A model generated the notes under the pieces. The model had not been told where the DNA came from and ran no database searches. It saw only the letters and a list, made by a program, of their open reading frames with translations. Of a DNA stretch of 64,000 nt, positions 4,140 to 56,755 are shown piece after piece. The DNA is from Alphaproteobacteria bacterium (GTDB lineage: Bacteria > Pseudomonadota > Alphaproteobacteria > UBA2966): positions 2,519,816-2,583,815 of the forward strand of contig OZ241357.1 of assembly GCA_965200265.1 (NCBI GenBank), given 5' to 3'. How positions within the stretch are numbered: the first letter of the stretch is position 1; the number at the start of each line of letters is the position of its first letter. Position numbers and translations under genes: made by a program.

Positions 4140-5255
4140 GTGACGCGACTCGACCTGACGGACTATCGCAACATCCGCGATCTTCGGCTGGAAACCGAGG
4201 CGAAGGTGGTGGTTCTGACGGGGCCCAACGGGGCCGGCAAGACGAACGTCCTCGAGGCGCTGTCCTTCCTGTCTCCGGGGCGAGGACTGCGCCGCGCGCG
4301 ATTGGCCGACGTGCCGCGTCGCGGCGGCGCGGGAGTCTGGGCCGTGGCCGCGCGGGTCCGGCATCCGCGGGGGATGGTCGAGGTCGGAACCGGGGTGGTC
4401 CCGGACCAGCAGATCGGGGAACGCCGCCTCGTCAAGATCGACGGCCAGGCGGCGCGGGGAACGGCGGCCCTCGGCCGCGCGTTGACGATGAACTGGCTGA
4501 CGCCGCCGATGGACCGGTTGTTCGTCGACGGGCCAAGCCCCCGCCGACGGTTTCTCGACCGGCTCGTCTACGGGTTCGACGCCGACCACGCCGCGCGCGT
4601 ATCGGCCTACGACCGCACGCTGCGGGAACGTTCCCGGCTTCTGCGCGACGGCCGGAGGGACGCGGCCTGGCTCGGCGCGCTGGAGGAGACCCTGGCCGGT
4701 CACGGCATCGCCGTGGCGGCGGCGCGCCGGGAGACCATCTCCCGGTTGCGGAGCGGCATGAAGGCCGGCGTTTCGCCGTTCCCCGCCGCCGCGGTCGCCG
4801 CCGACGGGGACGTGGAGCGCTGGCTCGACGTCATGCCCGCGGTCGACGCCGAGGGCCGGTTCCGGGCCGCCCTCGAGGCGGCGCGGGATTGCGACGCGCG
4901 ATCCGGCGGCGCGGCCGTGGGTCCTCATCGCACCGACCTCGCCGTGCGTCACGCCGGAAAGGACCTGCCCGCCGGAAGCTGCTCGACCGGCGAGCAGAAG
5001 GCGCTTCTGGTGTCGATCGTGCTCGCCGACGCGCGGCTGCGGGAAGCCCGGCTGGGACGGGCGCCGCTTCTGCTATTCGACGAGGTCGCCGCTCATCTGG
5101 ACGCGACGCGACGGGAGGCGCTGTTCGAGTTGCTGATCGACCGATCCGCCCAGACCTGGATCACGGGAACGGACCGCTCGCTGTTCGACGGGCTGGGCCC
5201 GGCCGCGCGGAGATTCGGCGTCGACGACGGCCGGATTTCGGCGAGTCCCGAATAG
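4140..5255 (+). CDS. recF: DNA replication/repair protein RecF
   Basis: Walker A GPNGAGKTNVLEAL near the N-terminus, ABC-signature-like region and Walker B LLLFDEV; GTG start chosen to give canonical RecF length (371 aa); the ORF extends further 5'. Confidence 0.85.
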   Translation: MTRLDLTDYRNIRDLRLETEAKVVVLTGPNGAGKTNVLEALSFLSPGRGLRRARLADVPRRGGAGVWAVAARVRHPRGMVEVGTGVVPDQQIGERRLVKIDGQAARGTAALGRALTMNWLTPPMDRLFVDGPSPRRRFLDRLVYGFDADHAARVSAYDRTLRERSRLLRDGRRDAAWLGALEETLAGHGIAVAAARRETISRLRSGMKAGVSPFPAAAVAADGDVERWLDVMPAVDAEGRFRAALEAARDCDARSGGAAVGPHRTDLAVRHAGKDLPAGSCSTGEQKALLVSIVLADARLREARLGRAPLLLFDEVAAHLDATRREALFELLIDRSAQTWITGTDRSLFDGLGPAARRFGVDDGRISASPE

Positions 5256-19001: not shown

Positions 19002-19342
19002 CGTCCACGCCTCCCTTTCGCCGGGTCCGGCGATCCGGCCGTGCGCCGATCCCGGAACCGGATTGTAGAGGCCGGATCGCGGACGCGCCAGACGGTGTCC
19101 TCGTTTCCCCGGCCGGCAAAGGCTCCGTTTCCCCGGGAGCGCCGGCGTCCCGCCGGCATGGCGGGTCGAAGGCCGTCCTGGCCGACGCCGGGATCAAGGA
19201 GGCGCGGAGGGCCGAGATGGCGCTCCGGGCCGTCCGTGCGGAGATCACGAAGGACGAAGACGCCGACGCGGAGCAGGACCCGGCCGGTGCTGGGACGACA
19301 CGAGGGACGGCTTCGAGGAGCCGCCCTTTCTCTTGGCGCGGG

Positions 19343-19651
19343 CTACGAAGGAAACAGATTGATGAGAGCTACAACGATGCCGCCGAAGGAGCCAAGGATG
19401 ATGCCGGCGATGATGCCGGTTTGAACCCACAAGGCGCGGTAGAGATCGGCCTTGGTGGCCATCTTGTCTTCGAGGCGGGCTATATCCACCTTGAGGCGGG
19501 CTATATCCGCCTTCGTGGCGATGACTTTGACGACATGATCGCGGGCGGCTTCGGCGTGCGCTTCGGCCTGGGCGTCGTCGACGCCGGCGTCCTTGAGGCG
19601 CCGCGCATAGGACAGCGTATCGAAGCCGGGGGCTGTATCCGTATAGGCCAT
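19343..19651 (-). CDS. Small tail-anchored coiled-coil protein (DUF1640-like), copy 1
   Basis: MAYTDTAPGFDTLSYARRLKDAGV...ATKADIARLKVDIARLEDKMATKADL... heptads followed by the C-terminal TM helix GIIAGIILGSFGGIVVALINLF; internal Met start chosen. Confidence 0.6.
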   Translation of the reverse strand: MAYTDTAPGFDTLSYARRLKDAGVDDAQAEAHAEAARDHVVKVIATKADIARLKVDIARLEDKMATKADLYRALWVQTGIIAGIILGSFGGIVVALINLFPS

Positions 19652-20082
19652 GCGGGAAACGCTACGCCGCGGCCGGGGGGGCGTCAATGGCCGGGGAGCC
19701 GTCCCCGTACGCCGTCCGGGCAGCATGAGAACGTCTGCCTGGCGCCCCGGACGCGCGGCAACCCGGAGCAGAACCCGGACTTTCGAGGGGCCGGGGCGTG
19801 CGATTCCGGAACCGGATCGGGGGCGCGCCAGACGGTGTCCTCGTTTCCCCGGCCGGCAAAGGCTTCGTTTCCCTGGGAGCGCCGGCGTCCCGCCGGCATG
19901 GCGGGTCGAAGGCCATCCTGGCCGACGCCGGGATCAAGGAGGCGCGGAGGGCCGAGATGGCGCTCCGGGCCGTCCGTGCGGAGATCACGAAGGACGAAGA
20001 CGCCGACGCGGAGCAGGACCCGGCCGGTGCCGGGACGACACGAGGGACGGCTTCGAGGAGCCGCCCTTTCTCTTGACGCGGG

Positions 20083-20370
20083 CTACGAAGGAAACAGATT
20101 GATGAGAGCTACAACGATGCCGCCGAAGGAGCCAAGGATAATGCCGGCGATGATGCCGGTTTGAACCCACAAGGCGCGGTAGAGATCGGCCTTGGTGGCC
20201 ATCTTGTCTTCGAGGCGGGCTATATCCGCCTTCGTGGCGACGACTTTGACGACATGATCGCGGGCGGCTTCGGCGTGCGCTTCGGCCTGGGCGTCGTCGA
20301 CGCCGACGTCCCTGAGGTGCCGCGCATAGGACAGCGTATCGAAGCCGGGGGCTGTGTCCGTATAGGCCAT
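20083..20370 (-). CDS. Small tail-anchored coiled-coil protein (DUF1640-like), copy 2
   Basis: Near-identical to copy 1 (R->H, K->R, A->V, I->V and loss of one IARLKVD heptad). Confidence 0.6.
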   Translation of the reverse strand: MAYTDTAPGFDTLSYARHLRDVGVDDAQAEAHAEAARDHVVKVVATKADIARLEDKMATKADLYRALWVQTGIIAGIILGSFGGIVVALINLFPS

Positions 20371-20691
20371 GCGGGAAACGCTACGCCGCGGCCGGGGGGG
20401 CGTCAATGGCCGGGGAGCCGTCCCCGTACGCCGTCCGGGCAGCACAAGAACGTCTGCCTGGCGCCCCGGACGCGCGGCAACCCGGAGCAGAACCCGGACT
20501 TTCGAGGGGCCGGGGCGTGCGATTCCGGAAACGGAAATCGTTTCAAATCAGAACGGGTCCCGGCCTCTCTCGCGTTCGGGTATCCGTCAACTGAACCGTC
20601 CCGCACGGCGAACACGTCCACGGCAATTATCCTCGACCTCGACGGGTGGGAGCGCCGACGCTCCCGGGGACGTGCGGCCCTCAGCGCGCGG

Positions 20692-21255: not shown

Positions 21256-22035
21256 GTGGAGAAGAAAAAGAAGGTCCTGGTCATCGTTCCGTTCCCGATG
21301 ACGGAGGAACAGCTCGGGTTCCGGCAGCAGCAGCACGCCTCGCTCGATTTCGGCCCCGACATCGAGTTCGACTACCGGCCGGTCCGCGCGGCGGGCGGCA
21401 ACCTCGTGAGCCCCTACGACTGGTGCATCGGCGACCTCGTGGTTCTCGAGGCGGGCCTCTCCGCCCAGGAGGAGGGCTACGACGCGGTGTGCGTCGACAC
21501 CGTGAGCGATTCCGGCGTCGCCGCGCTGAGGACCGTTCTCGACATCCCCGTGATCGGTCCGGGGCGGGCGTCGTTCCTGCTCGCCATGCTGCTCGGCGAC
21601 AAGTTCGGCGTGCTGGCGATGTGGGAACGCTGGTCCGGGCTCTACAAGAAGACGCTGGAAGAGCTCGGCATCGGCCACAAGTTCGTGGGCGTGCACAGCA
21701 TCGACGCCACGGTCGACAACCGGAACCTGCTCAGCGGCAAGGAGGAGGAGACCTTCGGGCGGCTCGAGGAGGGCTGCCGGGCCTTGATCGACGACTACGG
21801 CGCCGACGTCATCTGCCTCGGGTCGACGTCGATGCATCAGGCCCACGTCCACCTTTCCGAGCGGATACCCGTGCCCATCGTCAATCCCGGTCCGGTGTCC
21901 TACAAGCTCGCCGAGGCCGTCCTCGGACTCGGCCTCACGCACAGCCGCCAGTACTACAAGCCGCCCATCGTGCGGGCCGACGAGACGCTCCGCGCCATGC
22001 TCGACGGCGCGGTCGAGGCGCGGAAGAACGGGTAG
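21256..22035 (+). CDS. Asp/Glu/hydantoin racemase family protein (paralog 1)
   Basis: Two-Cys racemase-superfamily layout (AVCVDTVSDSG ... VICLGSTSMHQ), PIVNPGPVSYKLAE; GTG start preceded by GGGAGA. Confidence 0.8.
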   Translation: MEKKKKVLVIVPFPMTEEQLGFRQQQHASLDFGPDIEFDYRPVRAAGGNLVSPYDWCIGDLVVLEAGLSAQEEGYDAVCVDTVSDSGVAALRTVLDIPVIGPGRASFLLAMLLGDKFGVLAMWERWSGLYKKTLEELGIGHKFVGVHSIDATVDNRNLLSGKEEETFGRLEEGCRALIDDYGADVICLGSTSMHQAHVHLSERIPVPIVNPGPVSYKLAEAVLGLGLTHSRQYYKPPIVRADETLRAMLDGAVEARKNG

Positions 22036-22077: not shown

Positions 22078-22842
22078 ATGGCCAAGGCTCTGGTTCTGGT
22101 GCCCTTCGCGCTCGACGAGAGCGGCATCGCCAACCGGCGCGCCCAGCTCGACCACGTCCGCCTGGGCCCGGACATCGCGTTCGACTTCCGCGGCGTCACG
22201 GCCGGCCCGAAGAGCTACGTGAGCCCGCACGACTTCGTGCTGATGGACATGGCGATCTTCGAGGCCGGGATGCGGGCGCAGGACGAGGGCTACGACGCCG
22301 TCTGCATCGACACCATGAGCGATTCGGGCCTCGACGCGCTCCGGTCGGTGCTCGACATTCCGGTGATCGCGCCGGGGAAGGCGGCGATGCTGTTCTGCCT
22401 GACGCTCGGCGAGAAGTTCTCCATCCTCTGTCAATGGGACTACGCCGTCGCGCGGACCACCAAGATGATCCGCGCGCTGGGGCTCGAGGACTTCTGCGCC
22501 GCCGTCGTGAACTACGACGCGCCGCCGGACTACGCCGGCCTGCTCGACGGCAAGGAGGACACGGTCTTCCCCAGGATGAAGGCGGCGTGCGACGAGGCGA
22601 TGGCGGCGGGGGCGGACGTGATCTGCCTGGGATCGACGACCATGCACCAGGCGGCCGAGTACCTGGCCGCGAACCTGCCCGTCCCCGTCGTCAATCCGGG
22701 TCCGCTGACCTACAAGCTCGTCGAGTCCGTCCTCGATCTCGCGCTCACGCACAGCCGCAAGGCCTATCCCAGGCCCCTCGACCCGCGGCCCGGCATGATC
22801 CACGCCATGCTCGCGGCCGGGAAGGCGTCGCCGGACGGGTAG
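22078..22842 (+). CDS. Asp/Glu/hydantoin racemase family protein (paralog 2)
   Basis: Same motif set as paralog 1 (AVCIDTMSDSG ... VICLGSTTMHQ; PVVNPGPLTYKL). Confidence 0.8.
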   Translation: MAKALVLVPFALDESGIANRRAQLDHVRLGPDIAFDFRGVTAGPKSYVSPHDFVLMDMAIFEAGMRAQDEGYDAVCIDTMSDSGLDALRSVLDIPVIAPGKAAMLFCLTLGEKFSILCQWDYAVARTTKMIRALGLEDFCAAVVNYDAPPDYAGLLDGKEDTVFPRMKAACDEAMAAGADVICLGSTTMHQAAEYLAANLPVPVVNPGPLTYKLVESVLDLALTHSRKAYPRPLDPRPGMIHAMLAAGKASPDG

Positions 22843-53683: not shown

Positions 53684-54002
53684 CCCTTCGGGTCATCTTC
53701 GGCGCCAAGGAGGATTTCTTCATCAAGGCTGTCATGGCCTACACCAAATTTGGCCTTGAATAGCAAAGCCAATTCGTGTCTACTTGTGACGCATTCGGAT
53801 TCACATGAGGGTCGAGAACACGCATAGGGGGTAATTCGTGCTTCCGGTTGCCCAAGGCTACACACCTAACCGTGGTTTCCTTGCCGATTTCCCTGATGTA
53901 GGCTTTTTCTCGATGTCCCCACGTTCGATGAGAAGAAACGAGCCGTTGATCCCTCTCTTGCTCAACGCTACACTACACTGACCCGTACCGAAGGAACCAC
54001 CC

Positions 54003-54431
54003 ATGAACCCGAGAAAAATCTTTATCGCATGCGTCACCACAGCCATATTGACCGGCTGTGCATCACTAGATAAACTAAATTTGTCACTCGGTCCATTTCC
54101 GACTGATTACAAAACAACCATCAAGAAAGAGGTCTTGCGTGGCTTCTTTGATCCTTATTCGATTCGAGATGCTTCGATATCTGCGCCTATACGGTCCCGC
54201 ATAGTCGAACCTAAAGGGTGGCTTGTTTGCCTTGAGGTAAACGCCAAGAACAGGATGGGTGGTTACACTGGACTATCCCGCACCGCCTACTATATCCGGC
54301 TTGGCGGGCAGGTAATCGGAATCGAGGACGGTGATTCCGGAAACTGGACTTGCTCCGGTCAAACAATCAGTGGGATGAGGACGTTGACTTATTCGTTGTG
54401 GCCAGAGCTTGAACAGCTTCAACATCAATAG
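54003..54431 (+). CDS. Lipoprotein, function unknown (low-GC islet)
   Basis: Signal peptide + lipobox (ILTGCAS); lies in a distinctly AT-richer segment. Confidence 0.55.
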   Translation: MNPRKIFIACVTTAILTGCASLDKLNLSLGPFPTDYKTTIKKEVLRGFFDPYSIRDASISAPIRSRIVEPKGWLVCLEVNAKNRMGGYTGLSRTAYYIRLGGQVIGIEDGDSGNWTCSGQTISGMRTLTYSLWPELEQLQHQ

Positions 54432-54457
54432 CATCCACTCCCGGTCCCTTCTACCGC

Positions 54458-54730
54458 TCATACGTGGAATTTGTAACGAATTGTCAGAGATGCTCCTCTT
54501 TTCCCTTTCGGTTGGTGAATGATGTCATCTCTATCCTCTTTGTACTCCTGCCACATGACATTCGCACATGAGGGCATGTTCGCAGCGCGCTCTCCACGTT
54601 TGGGTGGGTAACCACCAAGTTTCCGGTAAAGCTCACCAGCATTTATCTCAGCATGTGGGCGACCCTGCTGTTGGGCGCGTTTGATCTGTGCTCGAAGTTC
54701 TTCTCGAAACTCGTCTGTGGTTGGCGGCAT
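54458..54730 (-). CDS. Hypothetical small basic protein (low-GC islet)
   Basis: 90 aa, Lys/Arg-rich, non-repetitive composition (...EINAGELYRKLGGYPPKRGERAANMPSCANVMWQEY...); no family assigned. Confidence 0.4.
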   Translation of the reverse strand: MPPTTDEFREELRAQIKRAQQQGRPHAEINAGELYRKLGGYPPKRGERAANMPSCANVMWQEYKEDRDDIIHQPKGKRGASLTIRYKFHV

Positions 54731-55043
54731 CAGGAATTCACCTTACAAGACCTGGGGATACGATGTCGGCAGTTGGTTTCAGTGCGGCTTCCGTACCGAT
54801 CCGGTGTTCAGGCCCCTCGTTCGACTCTTGGTCCAGTAACCTTGAAGCACCTTGTGCCGAATGCTCCCTGTCATGGTTGCAGAGTGGCGGGCCGCGGCGC
54901 ATTTGTCAAACACTGCCTTACAGATGCCGGGAACATCGCCGCGCGCCGGACCTCCGGTCTCGCGAGGACCCCGCCGCTGATGACCAGCCCGGTGTCTTCC
55001 GCGGCCGAACACCCCTATCGTATGAAATCAGCTCTTCCTTCTG

Positions 55044-55442
55044 TTGTCAGATGCTGATAACCTTGTGGCGGTAACCACACCCGACCGCGATCCCGGGCTG
55101 GACACCCTGCTGGACCTTCACGGCCAGACCCTGTTCGTGGATGAGGTCGGACATTGGGTGAAGTTTGTCGTGCTGCGAACCGATGTGACTCCGGAACGTC
55201 CGCACGGACTCAGCTATTCGCTGACACTGCACGCACCGGACGGCACCAGGTTGGTCGGGTTCGACAACGCGCACCCGGTGAGGGAGCGGCGAGGTCCGGG
55301 AATGCGGAAACGCATGAAGAGCGACCACAAGCACCGGATTCGGACAGTCCGGCCCTATGATTACGAAGACGCCGCCACGCTTCTTGAGGATTTCTGGACC
55401 GAGGTAGATCGGATTCTGAAGGAAGGAGAGTCGATTCCATGA
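55044..55442 (+). CDS. TumE-like toxin-family protein (DUF6516-like)
   Basis: FDNAHP...H.H pattern (GFDNAHPVRERRGPGMRKRMKSDHKHRIR) and 4-nt overlap with a downstream HTH gene, as in TumE/TumA-type pairs. Confidence 0.55.
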   Translation: MSDADNLVAVTTPDRDPGLDTLLDLHGQTLFVDEVGHWVKFVVLRTDVTPERPHGLSYSLTLHAPDGTRLVGFDNAHPVRERRGPGMRKRMKSDHKHRIRTVRPYDYEDAATLLEDFWTEVDRILKEGESIP

Positions 55443-55819
55443 GGACGTTGAAGATCGGTATTGCCGACTATGATCGGATGAAGGCGCGCACCATGGAGAT
55501 CGCGCACGGCGAACGCAAGCCGGCCAAGGGCGAGCCGATGGTATGGTTCACGTCGGTCGAGAGCTTCGCGAAGGTGCTCTCCCGGCGCAATCAGGAACTT
55601 CTGGCGTTGATCGCCCGCGAGAAGCCGCGGTCGCTCACCGAGCTGGCGGAACTCGCGGGGCGGAACAAGTCGAACCTGTCGCGCACCCTGAAGACGATGT
55701 CGCGGTATGGCCTCGTGGAATTGACGGAAGGACGACGTGGCATGTTGGTCCCGCGGGTCCGGTACGACCGGGTGAGGCTGGACGTTTCGTTGACGCCGCT
55801 CCCGCACCAAGTCGCGTGA
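55439..55819 (+). CDS. HTH DNA-binding protein (HVO_A0114/MarR-like), putative antitoxin partner
   Basis: Winged-helix segment ELLALIAREKPRSLTELAELAGRNKSNLSRTLKTMSRYGLVEL; ATGA overlap with the preceding gene. Confidence 0.55.
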   Translation: MRTLKIGIADYDRMKARTMEIAHGERKPAKGEPMVWFTSVESFAKVLSRRNQELLALIAREKPRSLTELAELAGRNKSNLSRTLKTMSRYGLVELTEGRRGMLVPRVRYDRVRLDVSLTPLPHQVA

Positions 55820-55891
55820 AGCGGCCGGAATCGACGGGCGCGGACGGTCCGGAGAGACCGCCATGCCCCGGCGACCCGTATGTGAACGCCC

Positions 55892-56755
55892 CTACCGCTC
55901 GCTCTCCAGCGAAGCGATGCGCAACAGGCCCTCCCGGGCGAGCGCGACCGTGTCCGGGTCGGCGGGATCCGAGGAATGCATCATGTAGGCCGGCCGCTTG
56001 AAGGTCGGGGCGCCGGTCACGCGGTATAGCCGCCTCTCCGCCAGATAGGGCCGCACGACCCGCAGGGGGAAGTACCCCGCCCCGCCGTTGTCGAGGATGT
56101 ATTGCAACCCGATGGCGCCGAGACCGACGGAGACCGCCGAAACCTCGATCTCGGGGAACGCCTTGACGAGTTCCGCGCGGTAGTCGGCGCCCCAGTCCAC
56201 GTAGATGTAGTCATCCATCCAACCGGAACGGATCTTGCGCTTGCGGGTCGACACCATCACGAGCCGCTCCTCCAGGAGGGTCTCGACGACGAACCCCGAC
56301 ATCGTGCGCGGATAATAGAGGACGACGAGGTCGAGCAGACCGTCGGACAGCTGCCGCATCAGGCTGGGCGAATAATCCGTCTCCACGTGAAGCGCGACGT
56401 CCGGCGCCTGGGCCCGCATCCACGGCAGCCATCGCGCCACCAGCCGTTCCCACAGGCTCACCTGGGTGCCGAGGCCGAACAGAGCCCGGTAACCCTCGGG
56501 CAGAGCGACCTGTTGCCGGCCCCGCTCCCAGCCCTGGACCACGGACGCGGCGTATCGTTCGAAGCGCCGGCCGGCGCCGGTCAACTCGACCCCTGACCGG
56601 CCGCGCCGGAACAGCTGGCGATCGAGTCGGTCCTCCAGCCCCCTGATCCGCGCGCTGACCGTCGACTGGCTGACGTTCAGATTGTCGGCAGCCTGGTTGA
56701 AGTTTCCCGTCGCGGCGATTTCGAGAAAGGTCCGCAACTGCTCGATGTTCGCCAT
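55892..56755 (-). CDS. LysR-family transcriptional regulator
   Basis: N-terminal HTH IEQLRTFLEIAATGNFNQAADNLNVSQSTVSARIRGLE, C-terminal substrate-binding domain; divergent from the GBBH-like gene. Confidence 0.85.
   Translation of the reverse strand: MANIEQLRTFLEIAATGNFNQAADNLNVSQSTVSARIRGLEDRLDRQLFRRGRSGVELTGAGRRFERYAASVVQGWERGRQQVALPEGYRALFGLGTQVSLWERLVARWLPWMRAQAPDVALHVETDYSPSLMRQLSDGLLDLVVLYYPRTMSGFVVETLLEERLVMVSTRKRKIRSGWMDDYIYVDWGADYRAELVKAFPEIEVSAVSVGLGAIGLQYILDNGGAGYFPLRVVRPYLAERRLYRVTGAPTFKRPAYMMHSSDPADPDTVALAREGLLRIASLESER

Follow-up and report, generated by a model that had tools for sequence, protein, structure and literature searches.

Two almost identical small genes lie head to tail on the minus strand of a 64,000-nt stretch of contig OZ241357.1 (assembly GCA_965200265.1, an alphaproteobacterium of the UBA2966 lineage), and the locus raises the question of whether this pair is a genuine duplication, how old it is and what its products might do. 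The whole 64,000-nt stretch is called the window here, and coordinates refer to it unless they are preceded by an L-number, which designates a locus on another contig. The genes, flanked by an ABM monooxygenase gene on one side and an MBL-fold hydrolase gene on the other, encode short DUF1640/CCDC90-like proteins. We consider it likely that a segment of ~720 bp, comprising one such gene, its promoter-like region and 3' DNA, was duplicated in tandem and then subjected to gene conversion and rearrangement. The event is an ordinary lineage-specific gene duplication, and the DNA processes involved, namely duplication, a slippage indel, conversion and deletion, are ordinary as well.

Local alignment and a repeat search resolved the locus into the following parts.

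19072-19811: repeat unit b, MBL-proximal, 740 bp
19812-20530: repeat unit a, ABM-proximal, 719 bp
19343-19651, minus strand: DUF1640/CCDC90-like gene, copy b, 102 amino acids (aa)
20083-20370, minus strand: DUF1640/CCDC90-like gene, copy a, 95 aa
19472-19513, minus strand: heptad indel, two 21-bp units (KADIARL and KVDIARL), of which copy a holds a single one
20516-20536: start of a third unit, 19/21 matches to 19797-19817, with a chance expectation of none
19040-19063: related short motif cgtgcgCcgatcccggaaccggat in the ancestral MBL-upstream flank, outside the repeat proper

In the local alignment, positions 19072-19471 pair with 19812-20211 and 19493-19816 with 20212-20535. These direct repeats, arranged head to tail, differ by 16 mismatches (97.8% identity) and one 21-bp gap, and the repeat search recovered the same two blocks at spacings of 740 and 719. 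An initial annotation, made from the sequence of the window, had described tandem direct repeats of about 739 and 720 bp spanning 19049-20536; the repeats were recovered at nearly these lengths, while their boundary is refined to 19072-20535, the motif at 19040-19063 being a related sequence in the ancestral flank. This motif possibly represents microhomology used in forming the duplication junction. The start of a third unit after unit a, also reported earlier, amounts to about 20 nt and marks the ABM-side breakpoint of the duplication at ~20530.

Each unit contains one complete gene together with 160 bp of its own upstream DNA and ~270 bp of non-coding 3' DNA, in agreement with the two complete minus-strand genes and separate upstream regions of the initial annotation. 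Its list of four substitutions (R/H, K/R, A/V and I/V) and one extra in-frame heptad in the first copy likewise holds: the copy b protein differs from that of copy a by R18H, K20R, A22V and I44V and by seven extra residues, KVDIARL, and Tandem Repeats Finder detected a 21-bp unit, GAGGCGGGCTATATCCACCTT, in 2.0 copies at 19472-19513 of unit b only. The 95-aa protein of copy a is identical to the database protein P0007.

A look-up of close homologues yielded thirteen other contigs with the same neighbourhood, which comprises an S8 peptidase, two Asp/Glu racemases, the ABM monooxygenase, the DUF1640 gene or genes, the MBL hydrolase, SIR2 and heptose-synthesis genes. The flanking genes of these contigs share 98-99.7% DNA identity with the window, and the contigs therefore belong to the same species. 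Their states, given as protein lengths on the ABM side and the MBL side, are as follows.

95 and 102 aa: window, L003, L004, L005, L088, L089, L091
102 and 95 aa: L002
5'-deleted 95 and 95 aa: L177
single 95 aa: L006, L087, L090
contig breaks inside the repeat: L001

The same two-copy junction was present in at least eight other assemblies (L002-L005, L088, L089, L091 and L177). Two of them, L004 and L005, are contigs of 470 kb and 525 kb from one sample with 11.7x and 19.6x coverage, and their names suggest a HiFi assembler. If the pair were an assembly artefact, as the initial annotation had considered, one gene would have been expanded or two strain alleles stitched head to tail by the assembler. 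Short-read scaffolds do break (L001) or hold 100-N gaps (L088 and L091) within the repeat, and L006, L087 and L090 carry one copy only. However, the copies differ at 16 sites and by the indel, the junction is common to independent assemblies from different samples, including the two large contigs, and the junction-specific bases 19820 and 19823 consistently differ from the flank copy. Given the differences between the copies and the recurrence of the junction, an artefact is effectively ruled out, and we regard it as extremely improbable. The single-copy contigs may be collapsed assemblies, since the 100-N gaps show that short reads struggle in the repeat. Ongoing copy-number variation, also proposed initially, is suggested by these contigs but not proven, because single-copy versions are confined to short-read scaffolds.

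To place the duplication in time, the orthologous locus was sought with the MBL protein in one genome per species and was found in the sister species L007-L010, whose MBL proteins are 91-96% identical to it; the flanking genes of L007 and L008 share 93-95% DNA identity with the window. No DUF1640 gene was found between ABM and MBL in the sister species, and L007, L008 and L009, those with a resolved interval, have a luciferase-like (LLM) oxidoreductase and an alpha/beta hydrolase at this site (both named by eye from sequence). The comparison with related genomes envisaged in the initial annotation was thereby carried out, with L007 and L008 as examples that lack the genes. DNA homology to the sister species ends at 20687 on the ABM side and restarts at ~19095-19105 on the MBL side, and the intervening DNA is therefore lineage-specific.

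19106-20686: lineage-specific segment between the ABM monooxygenase gene and the MBL-fold hydrolase gene

According to the boundary alignment with the sister species, the last ~34 bp of each unit (19072-19105 and the copy at 19812-19845) are ancestral MBL-upstream DNA. At the junction, ...GATCCGG (19072) is joined to TTCCGGAATCGCACG..., the 5' end of the unit, and the ABM-side counterpart reads ...TTTCCGT/TTCCGG. The junction thus displays microhomology of a few bases, as in slipped or illegitimate recombination, and would have been formed by either of these processes; the 21-bp duplication within the gene would have arisen by replication slippage. A TACAAT conserved in the DNA upstream of MBL (19062-19067, reverse strand) was left out of the duplication. 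Given that the two-copy state is found in the strains and is absent from the sister species, the duplication postdates the split from these species and predates the diversification of the strains. The strains sharing it differ by 0.3-2% in their flanking genes, and the very recent duplication proposed initially can consequently not be upheld; the near-identity of the copies must in part have been kept by gene conversion. In the sister species L007, two copies of a 58-nt G+C-rich element (91% identity; L007:2000-2057 and 4735-4792, ..CCCCACCCCGACCCTCCCCCTGC.AGGG.GAGGGAGAAGAAG..) enclose the block that holds ABM and the genes found in place of DUF1640, and similar peptide-like repeats recur 3' of MBL.

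Evidence for exchange between the copies was obtained from an alignment of all repeat units. Within one genome, units a and b are separated by 15 sites in the window, 16 in L003, 10 in L004, 5 in L005 and 4 in L002, while copies at the same position in different genomes are 3-21 sites apart. Across genomes, the distances of copies a and b amount to 8-21 sites. The two copies of L002 are nearly identical to each other and lie 11-21 sites from the copies of all other genomes, a pattern that is the signature of gene conversion between copies, and the table of variable sites is a mosaic rather than two clean lineages. After the duplication, the copies have thus exchanged sequence, giving rise to the mosaic variants, and the locus has been rearranged further. 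The 21-bp insert has the GTG allele (KVDIARL) in seven assemblies and the GCG allele (KADIARL, a perfect repeat) in L001 and L002, and in L002 it resides in the opposite copy from the other assemblies. L177 has lost 230 bp corresponding to 20284-20513 of the window across a 12-bp overlap (L177:476-772); the deletion takes out the promoter and head of copy a and leaves a fused 98-aa open reading frame (ORF), P0010, both copies being of the 95-aa type. With an insert in either copy, a 230-bp deletion in one strain and some one-copy contigs, the locus is structurally unstable. The coding sequences are nevertheless constrained: over all copies, 19 of 285 aligned bases vary, the ratio of non-synonymous to synonymous polymorphism (pN/pS) is 0.20, and the protein is invariant from residue 50 on. 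Both genes are therefore under purifying selection. The non-coding parts of the unit vary about like synonymous sites, and among all fetched sequence this non-coding DNA was found at this locus only.

The proteins were assigned to a family largely through their relatives. A word-indexed search returned 539 homologues, many of them with a precomputed PF07798 (DUF1640) annotation, and 1148 representatives were collected at E<=1e-3 after 50% clustering. Nearly all aligned homologues (67/70) match PF07798 at E<=0.01, the best at 7.4e-9. When the family profile (alignment A2) was compared with the PDB, it matched 6h9m_A (human CCDC90B, crystal structure) at E=6.6e-5 over the head motif fDTLayarrLkeAGvdeaqAEA, as well as the prokaryotic relative 6h9l and Tcar0761's alpha/beta coiled coil, 5apz (E=0.024). 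A match to the phage protein family phrog_17872 was also obtained (E=4.6e-10). NCBIfam and PADLOC scans of the window proteins gave nothing meaningful, and tblastn against phage and plasmid records found no relative. Taken together, head, beta-layer motif and anchor indirectly support the view that the proteins are short members of the DUF1640/CCDC90-like superfamily. The assignment made initially is therefore borne out by the homologues and the 6h9m match and not by the direct Pfam comparison, which stays below the cut-off. Longer starts at ATG 19726 (127 aa) and GTG 20445 (120 aa) were considered and rejected, because the N-termini of the homologues lie only a few residues from that of the short form.

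In alignment A2, the head is conserved at F10, D11, T12, L13, L19, A22, G23, A29-E30-A31 and A33; A45-T46-K47 is nearly invariant, with K47 invariant, and a stalk of greatly varying length is followed by a hydrophobic C-terminus. The 102-aa protein accordingly divides into a head (~10-43), IATKAD (44-49), MATKAD (64-69) and a transmembrane (TM) helix (~75-100); the first beta-layer motif takes the form I/V-A-T-K-A-D, and the second MATKAD lies at 57-62 in the 95-aa copy. The translation shows a hydrophobic run from W75 to F100 that is followed only by the residues PS and aligns with the hydrophobic C-termini in A2, which agrees with the Ala/Glu-rich coiled coil and C-terminal TM helix noted at the outset. 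In trimeric coiled coils, the motif [aliphatic]-A-T-K-[polar]-[DE] forms a beta-layer, and in DUF1640 proteins the stalk begins with this motif; the residue after a beta-layer is placed at e, and the layer itself may come after either g or c (Hartmann et al., eLife 2016, PMC4786415). With this rule, the register of the 102-aa protein was assigned by hand: I44-A-T46 is layer 1, K47 is at e, I50, L53, I57 and L60 occupy a/d positions, K63 is at g, and M64-A-T66 is layer 2. The AlphaFold2 monomer model, although of low confidence, interrupts its long helix exactly at A65-K67, the second ATK. Removal of KVDIARL (K54-L60) keeps a lysine at g before layer 2, and the heptad indel is thus exactly a change that the fold tolerates. 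In coiled-coil geometry, a heptad corresponds to 7 x 0.15 nm, or roughly 1 nm. The extra heptad between the beta-layers would accordingly lengthen the stalk by ~1 nm with the register unbroken.

Going by the family and by published structures of related proteins, each protein would be held in the inner membrane through the C-terminal helix, would have a cytoplasmic N-terminus and would form a parallel homotrimer. Its stalk would be an alpha/beta coiled coil interrupted by two beta-layers and topped by a small head, FDTLxYARRLxxAGV..QAEAHAEA. Trimers of a head-neck-stalk-anchor type have reportedly been described by Adlakha et al. in 2019 (Structure 27:464). The mitochondrial proteins MCUR1, CCDC90B, Put6 and Put7 are oriented towards the matrix and work as parts of hetero-oligomeric scaffolds (PMC7519068; bioRxiv 10.1101/2025.10.14.682030). 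By analogy, a role as a membrane-proximal scaffold, as for MCUR1/CCDC90B and Put6/Put7, appears most likely for the window proteins. A function for any bacterial DUF1640 member was not found in the literature.

With regard to expression, the upstream DNA of both copies contains a promoter-like element close to the start codon, and a hairpin follows each stop codon.

19659-19687, minus strand: promoter-like element of copy b, TTGACG (19687-19682), 17 nt, TAGCGT (19664-19659), 7 nt, ATG
20378-20406, minus strand: promoter-like element of copy a, same layout as copy b
19308-19323: hairpin rich in G+C, 20 nt beyond the copy b stop codon; a second instance at 20048-20063 follows copy a

No Shine-Dalgarno sequence was detected upstream of either copy, and a strict sigma-70 scan called no promoter, the promoter-like element lying below its threshold. 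The layout recurs at diverged DUF1640 paralogues: it is conserved at L093, L096 has GTTGACA as the -35-like hexamer and a spacing of 6 nt ahead of the ATG, and L092 retains the TAGCGT-N6-ATG part only, giving the consensus TTGAC(G/A)-17/18-TA(G/C)CGT-6/7-ATG. The lack of a Shine-Dalgarno sequence together with a promoter-like element 7 nt before ATG suggests that the DUF1640 genes may be transcribed as leaderless mRNAs. The hairpin after each stop codon is terminator-like on the plus strand and can fold on the minus strand too.

Several observations weigh against this account of the locus and its proteins. Scored directly against PF07798, the 102-aa protein of the window reaches 19.8 bits and the 95-aa protein 17.7, the gathering cut-off being 33.5 bits, and the matches cover only profile positions 1-36 and 1-53 of 175. 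The AlphaFold2 monomer model is of low confidence (pLDDT 56, pTM 0.25); trimerisation, topology and the scaffold role are what we infer from relatives. Paralogues occur in unrelated contexts, and their surroundings share no conserved genes that would indicate a partner. The G+C content at third codon positions (GC3) of the genes is ~0.79 as compared with ~0.9 in their neighbours, and their expression level or origin may therefore be atypical. Finally, the single-copy contigs L006, L087 and L090 may represent either real deletions or collapsed short-read assemblies.

The lineage has a second pair of this kind. The genome encoding P0007 also has P0031 (103 aa) and P0038 (97 aa), and P0038 is one half of a tandem pair at L093:3295-4294 (contig ctg391006, sample ERZ25070167, the same sample as L004/L005). 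The two proteins of this pair, 100 aa and 97 aa long, are encoded with 95% DNA identity over 427 bp and are ~54% identical to the window proteins. They differ by a 9-bp, three-residue insertion, MAM, just before the second MATKAD, which is predicted to move the beta-layer from following g to following c, a legal change by the register rule. In the first pair, the difference is thus a heptad placed between the beta-layers; in the second, it consists of three residues that turn a hexad-type into a nonad-type beta-layer. Around the second pair, three copies of a palindromic 28-33-nt element, ..CATCCCCGCGTGTGCGGGGGAAGC.., were noticed (L093:3165-3235 and 4385-4415), two of them adjacent with a 33-nt period and the third after the pair; by eye, the element is similar to CRISPR repeats of type I-E. 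A short ORF with a helix-turn-helix, MKFEEVYGRTHRGALSQGEAAEILGVSERTFRRWRDRYE..., is placed on the opposite strand between the DUF1640 copies and looks by eye like an N-terminal piece of a transposase. A homopolymer of 21 G is located at L093:2928-2948, and the gene adjoining the pair (L093:4719-6287) matches the PADLOC candidate defence ATPase PDC-S27 at E=1.3e-154.

Two other explanations of the window locus were weighed. The unit might be a small mobile cassette with its own mechanism of insertion and multiplication, bounded by short repeats and carrying the DUF1640 gene as a passenger. The segment is indeed lineage-specific and replaces other genes, and an 18-nt inverted repeat (17/18) lies 16-24 nt inside both of its ends, formed by the following motif.

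19130-19147 and 19870-19887: 18-nt motif TCCCCGGGAGCGCCGGCG; inverted, 17/18, at 20653-20670

The family match to phrog_17872 and the second pair at L093, which is flanked by 28-nt palindromic direct repeats and has a transposase-like helix-turn-helix ORF fragment (by eye) between its copies, would also suit a cassette. However, no transposase, integrase or recombinase was found in or near the window locus, the confinement of the unit's non-coding DNA to this one locus among the fetched sequences and the lack of a tblastn relative in phage or plasmid records speak against a cassette, and the duplication junction is situated in DNA of the ancestral flank, which is what a host-mediated duplication would give. 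The right arm of the inverted repeat is a perfect 7-bp hairpin just after the ABM stop codon and may therefore simply be a terminator. Among the features that would characterize a mobile cassette or a miniature inverted-repeat transposable element (MITE), namely terminal repeats along with copies elsewhere or a recombinase, only the inverted repeat was found in the window and the fetched loci, and we judge a cassette to be quite unlikely. As an observation apart, the motif in the form TCCCCGGGAGCGYCGGCG occurs once per unit and once inverted after the ABM stop, with no other good copies within the 64-kb window.

Alternatively, the length difference itself might be what is selected: the 95-aa and 102-aa proteins would act as distinct homotrimers or as an obligatory hetero-complex with one short and one long stalk. 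Eight of the nine two-copy assemblies hold one 95-aa and one 102-aa copy, even with the positions swapped in L002, and the second paralogue pair likewise shows a stalk indel that is legal in register (three residues, g to c). Eukaryotic family members act as paralogue hetero-complexes (PMC7519068; bioRxiv 10.1101/2025.10.14.682030). Tandem pairs are otherwise rare in the family: a metagenome locus scan with a 16-sequence alignment detected them elsewhere at 1/80 loci and at 0/18 of the loci with >=6 kb of sequence. By contrast, L177 has two copies of the 95-aa type with copy a truncated, and single-copy 95-aa contigs exist. The strain sample is moreover small and closely related, so that the shared 95/102 state may be simple inheritance. 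That the lineage repeatedly makes and keeps DUF1640 tandem pairs differing only by register-legal stalk indels as a selected two-length or hetero-complex system is an unlikely reading. If true, it would provide a bacterial analogue of MCUR1-CCDC90B or Put6-Put7 and a natural experiment on the tolerance of alpha/beta coiled coils to length change. We retain the tandem duplication followed by conversion and rearrangement as the likely explanation.

Other features of the window are mentioned briefly. A plus-strand ORF of 92 aa at 19798-20076 (copy at ~19067-19333), antisense to the 3' flank of the DUF1640 gene, was rejected as a gene. Its GC3 is 0.93-0.97 over ~90 nt, it ends in a terminator-like hairpin, and in L004 and L005 it was annotated by gene callers. 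Against a gene, its variable sites fall on codon positions 1, 2 and 3 as 6/9/3 and are mostly non-synonymous, and in unit b it lacks a start codon and reads through; it has no Pfam or NCBIfam match, and its only database match is itself. The ORF may be what is left of a decayed gene. Scans of the whole window for Rfam families and tRNAs returned nothing. Next to the locus, two adjacent Asp/Glu/hydantoin racemase genes share a 174-nt stretch (75% identity, 813-bp spacing), which points to an older tandem duplication beside the young one. Farther away, the region 54000-56000 has a G+C content of 0.58 as compared with ~0.68-0.70 elsewhere, with no ORF of >=150 aa between 53683 and 55361.

~21270-22035 and 22078-22842, plus strand: the two racemase genes (in related contigs, 259 and 254 aa)
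55892-56755, minus strand: LysR-type regulator gene (by eye)

For general biology, the locus carries little weight, since tandem duplication, indels by slippage and gene conversion belong to textbook knowledge and the family has been described before. What it offers is a population-level view of a young paralogue pair in concerted evolution in an uncultured bacterium, along with a prokaryotic relative of MCUR1/CCDC90B in two natural stalk lengths, with indels that follow published beta-layer register rules. The variants could serve as constructs for alpha/beta coiled-coil structure and for probing the role of bacterial DUF1640 proteins. This interest is modest and will mainly be shared by coiled-coil specialists.

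Among known systems, the small paralogous inner-membrane proteins of the Borrelia Bdr type have a C-terminal anchor and central repeats that vary in number between paralogues. Bdr repeats are 11-residue units, however, encoded by plasmid genes in large paralogous families, and the likeness is one of description only. Another parallel is Tcar0761 of Thermosinus carboxydivorans (PMC4786415; 5apz), in which MATK(D/A)D beta-layers likewise interrupt a trimeric coiled coil and the number of repeat units between layers varies naturally. In contrast to its 14 consecutive nonads, described together with DUF3782-type stalks, the window proteins have two layers, spaced by 13 or 20 residues (a hexad and one or two heptads), and are membrane-anchored. 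There is also the DUF1640/CCDC90 family itself (human MCUR1 and CCDC90B, yeast Put6 (Fmp32) and Put7, 6h9m and 6h9l), with which the window proteins share the head FDT..(L)..G....QAE, the ATK-x-D beta-layer at the stalk start, the coiled-coil stalk and the C-terminal TM anchor; the bulk of the protein would face the cytoplasm, the bacterial equivalent of the mitochondrial matrix. Unlike these relatives, the window proteins are only 95-102 aa long as compared with the 175 positions of the Pfam model, come without a targeting peptide or an MCU or proline-utilisation context, and have a second beta-layer directly before the TM helix.

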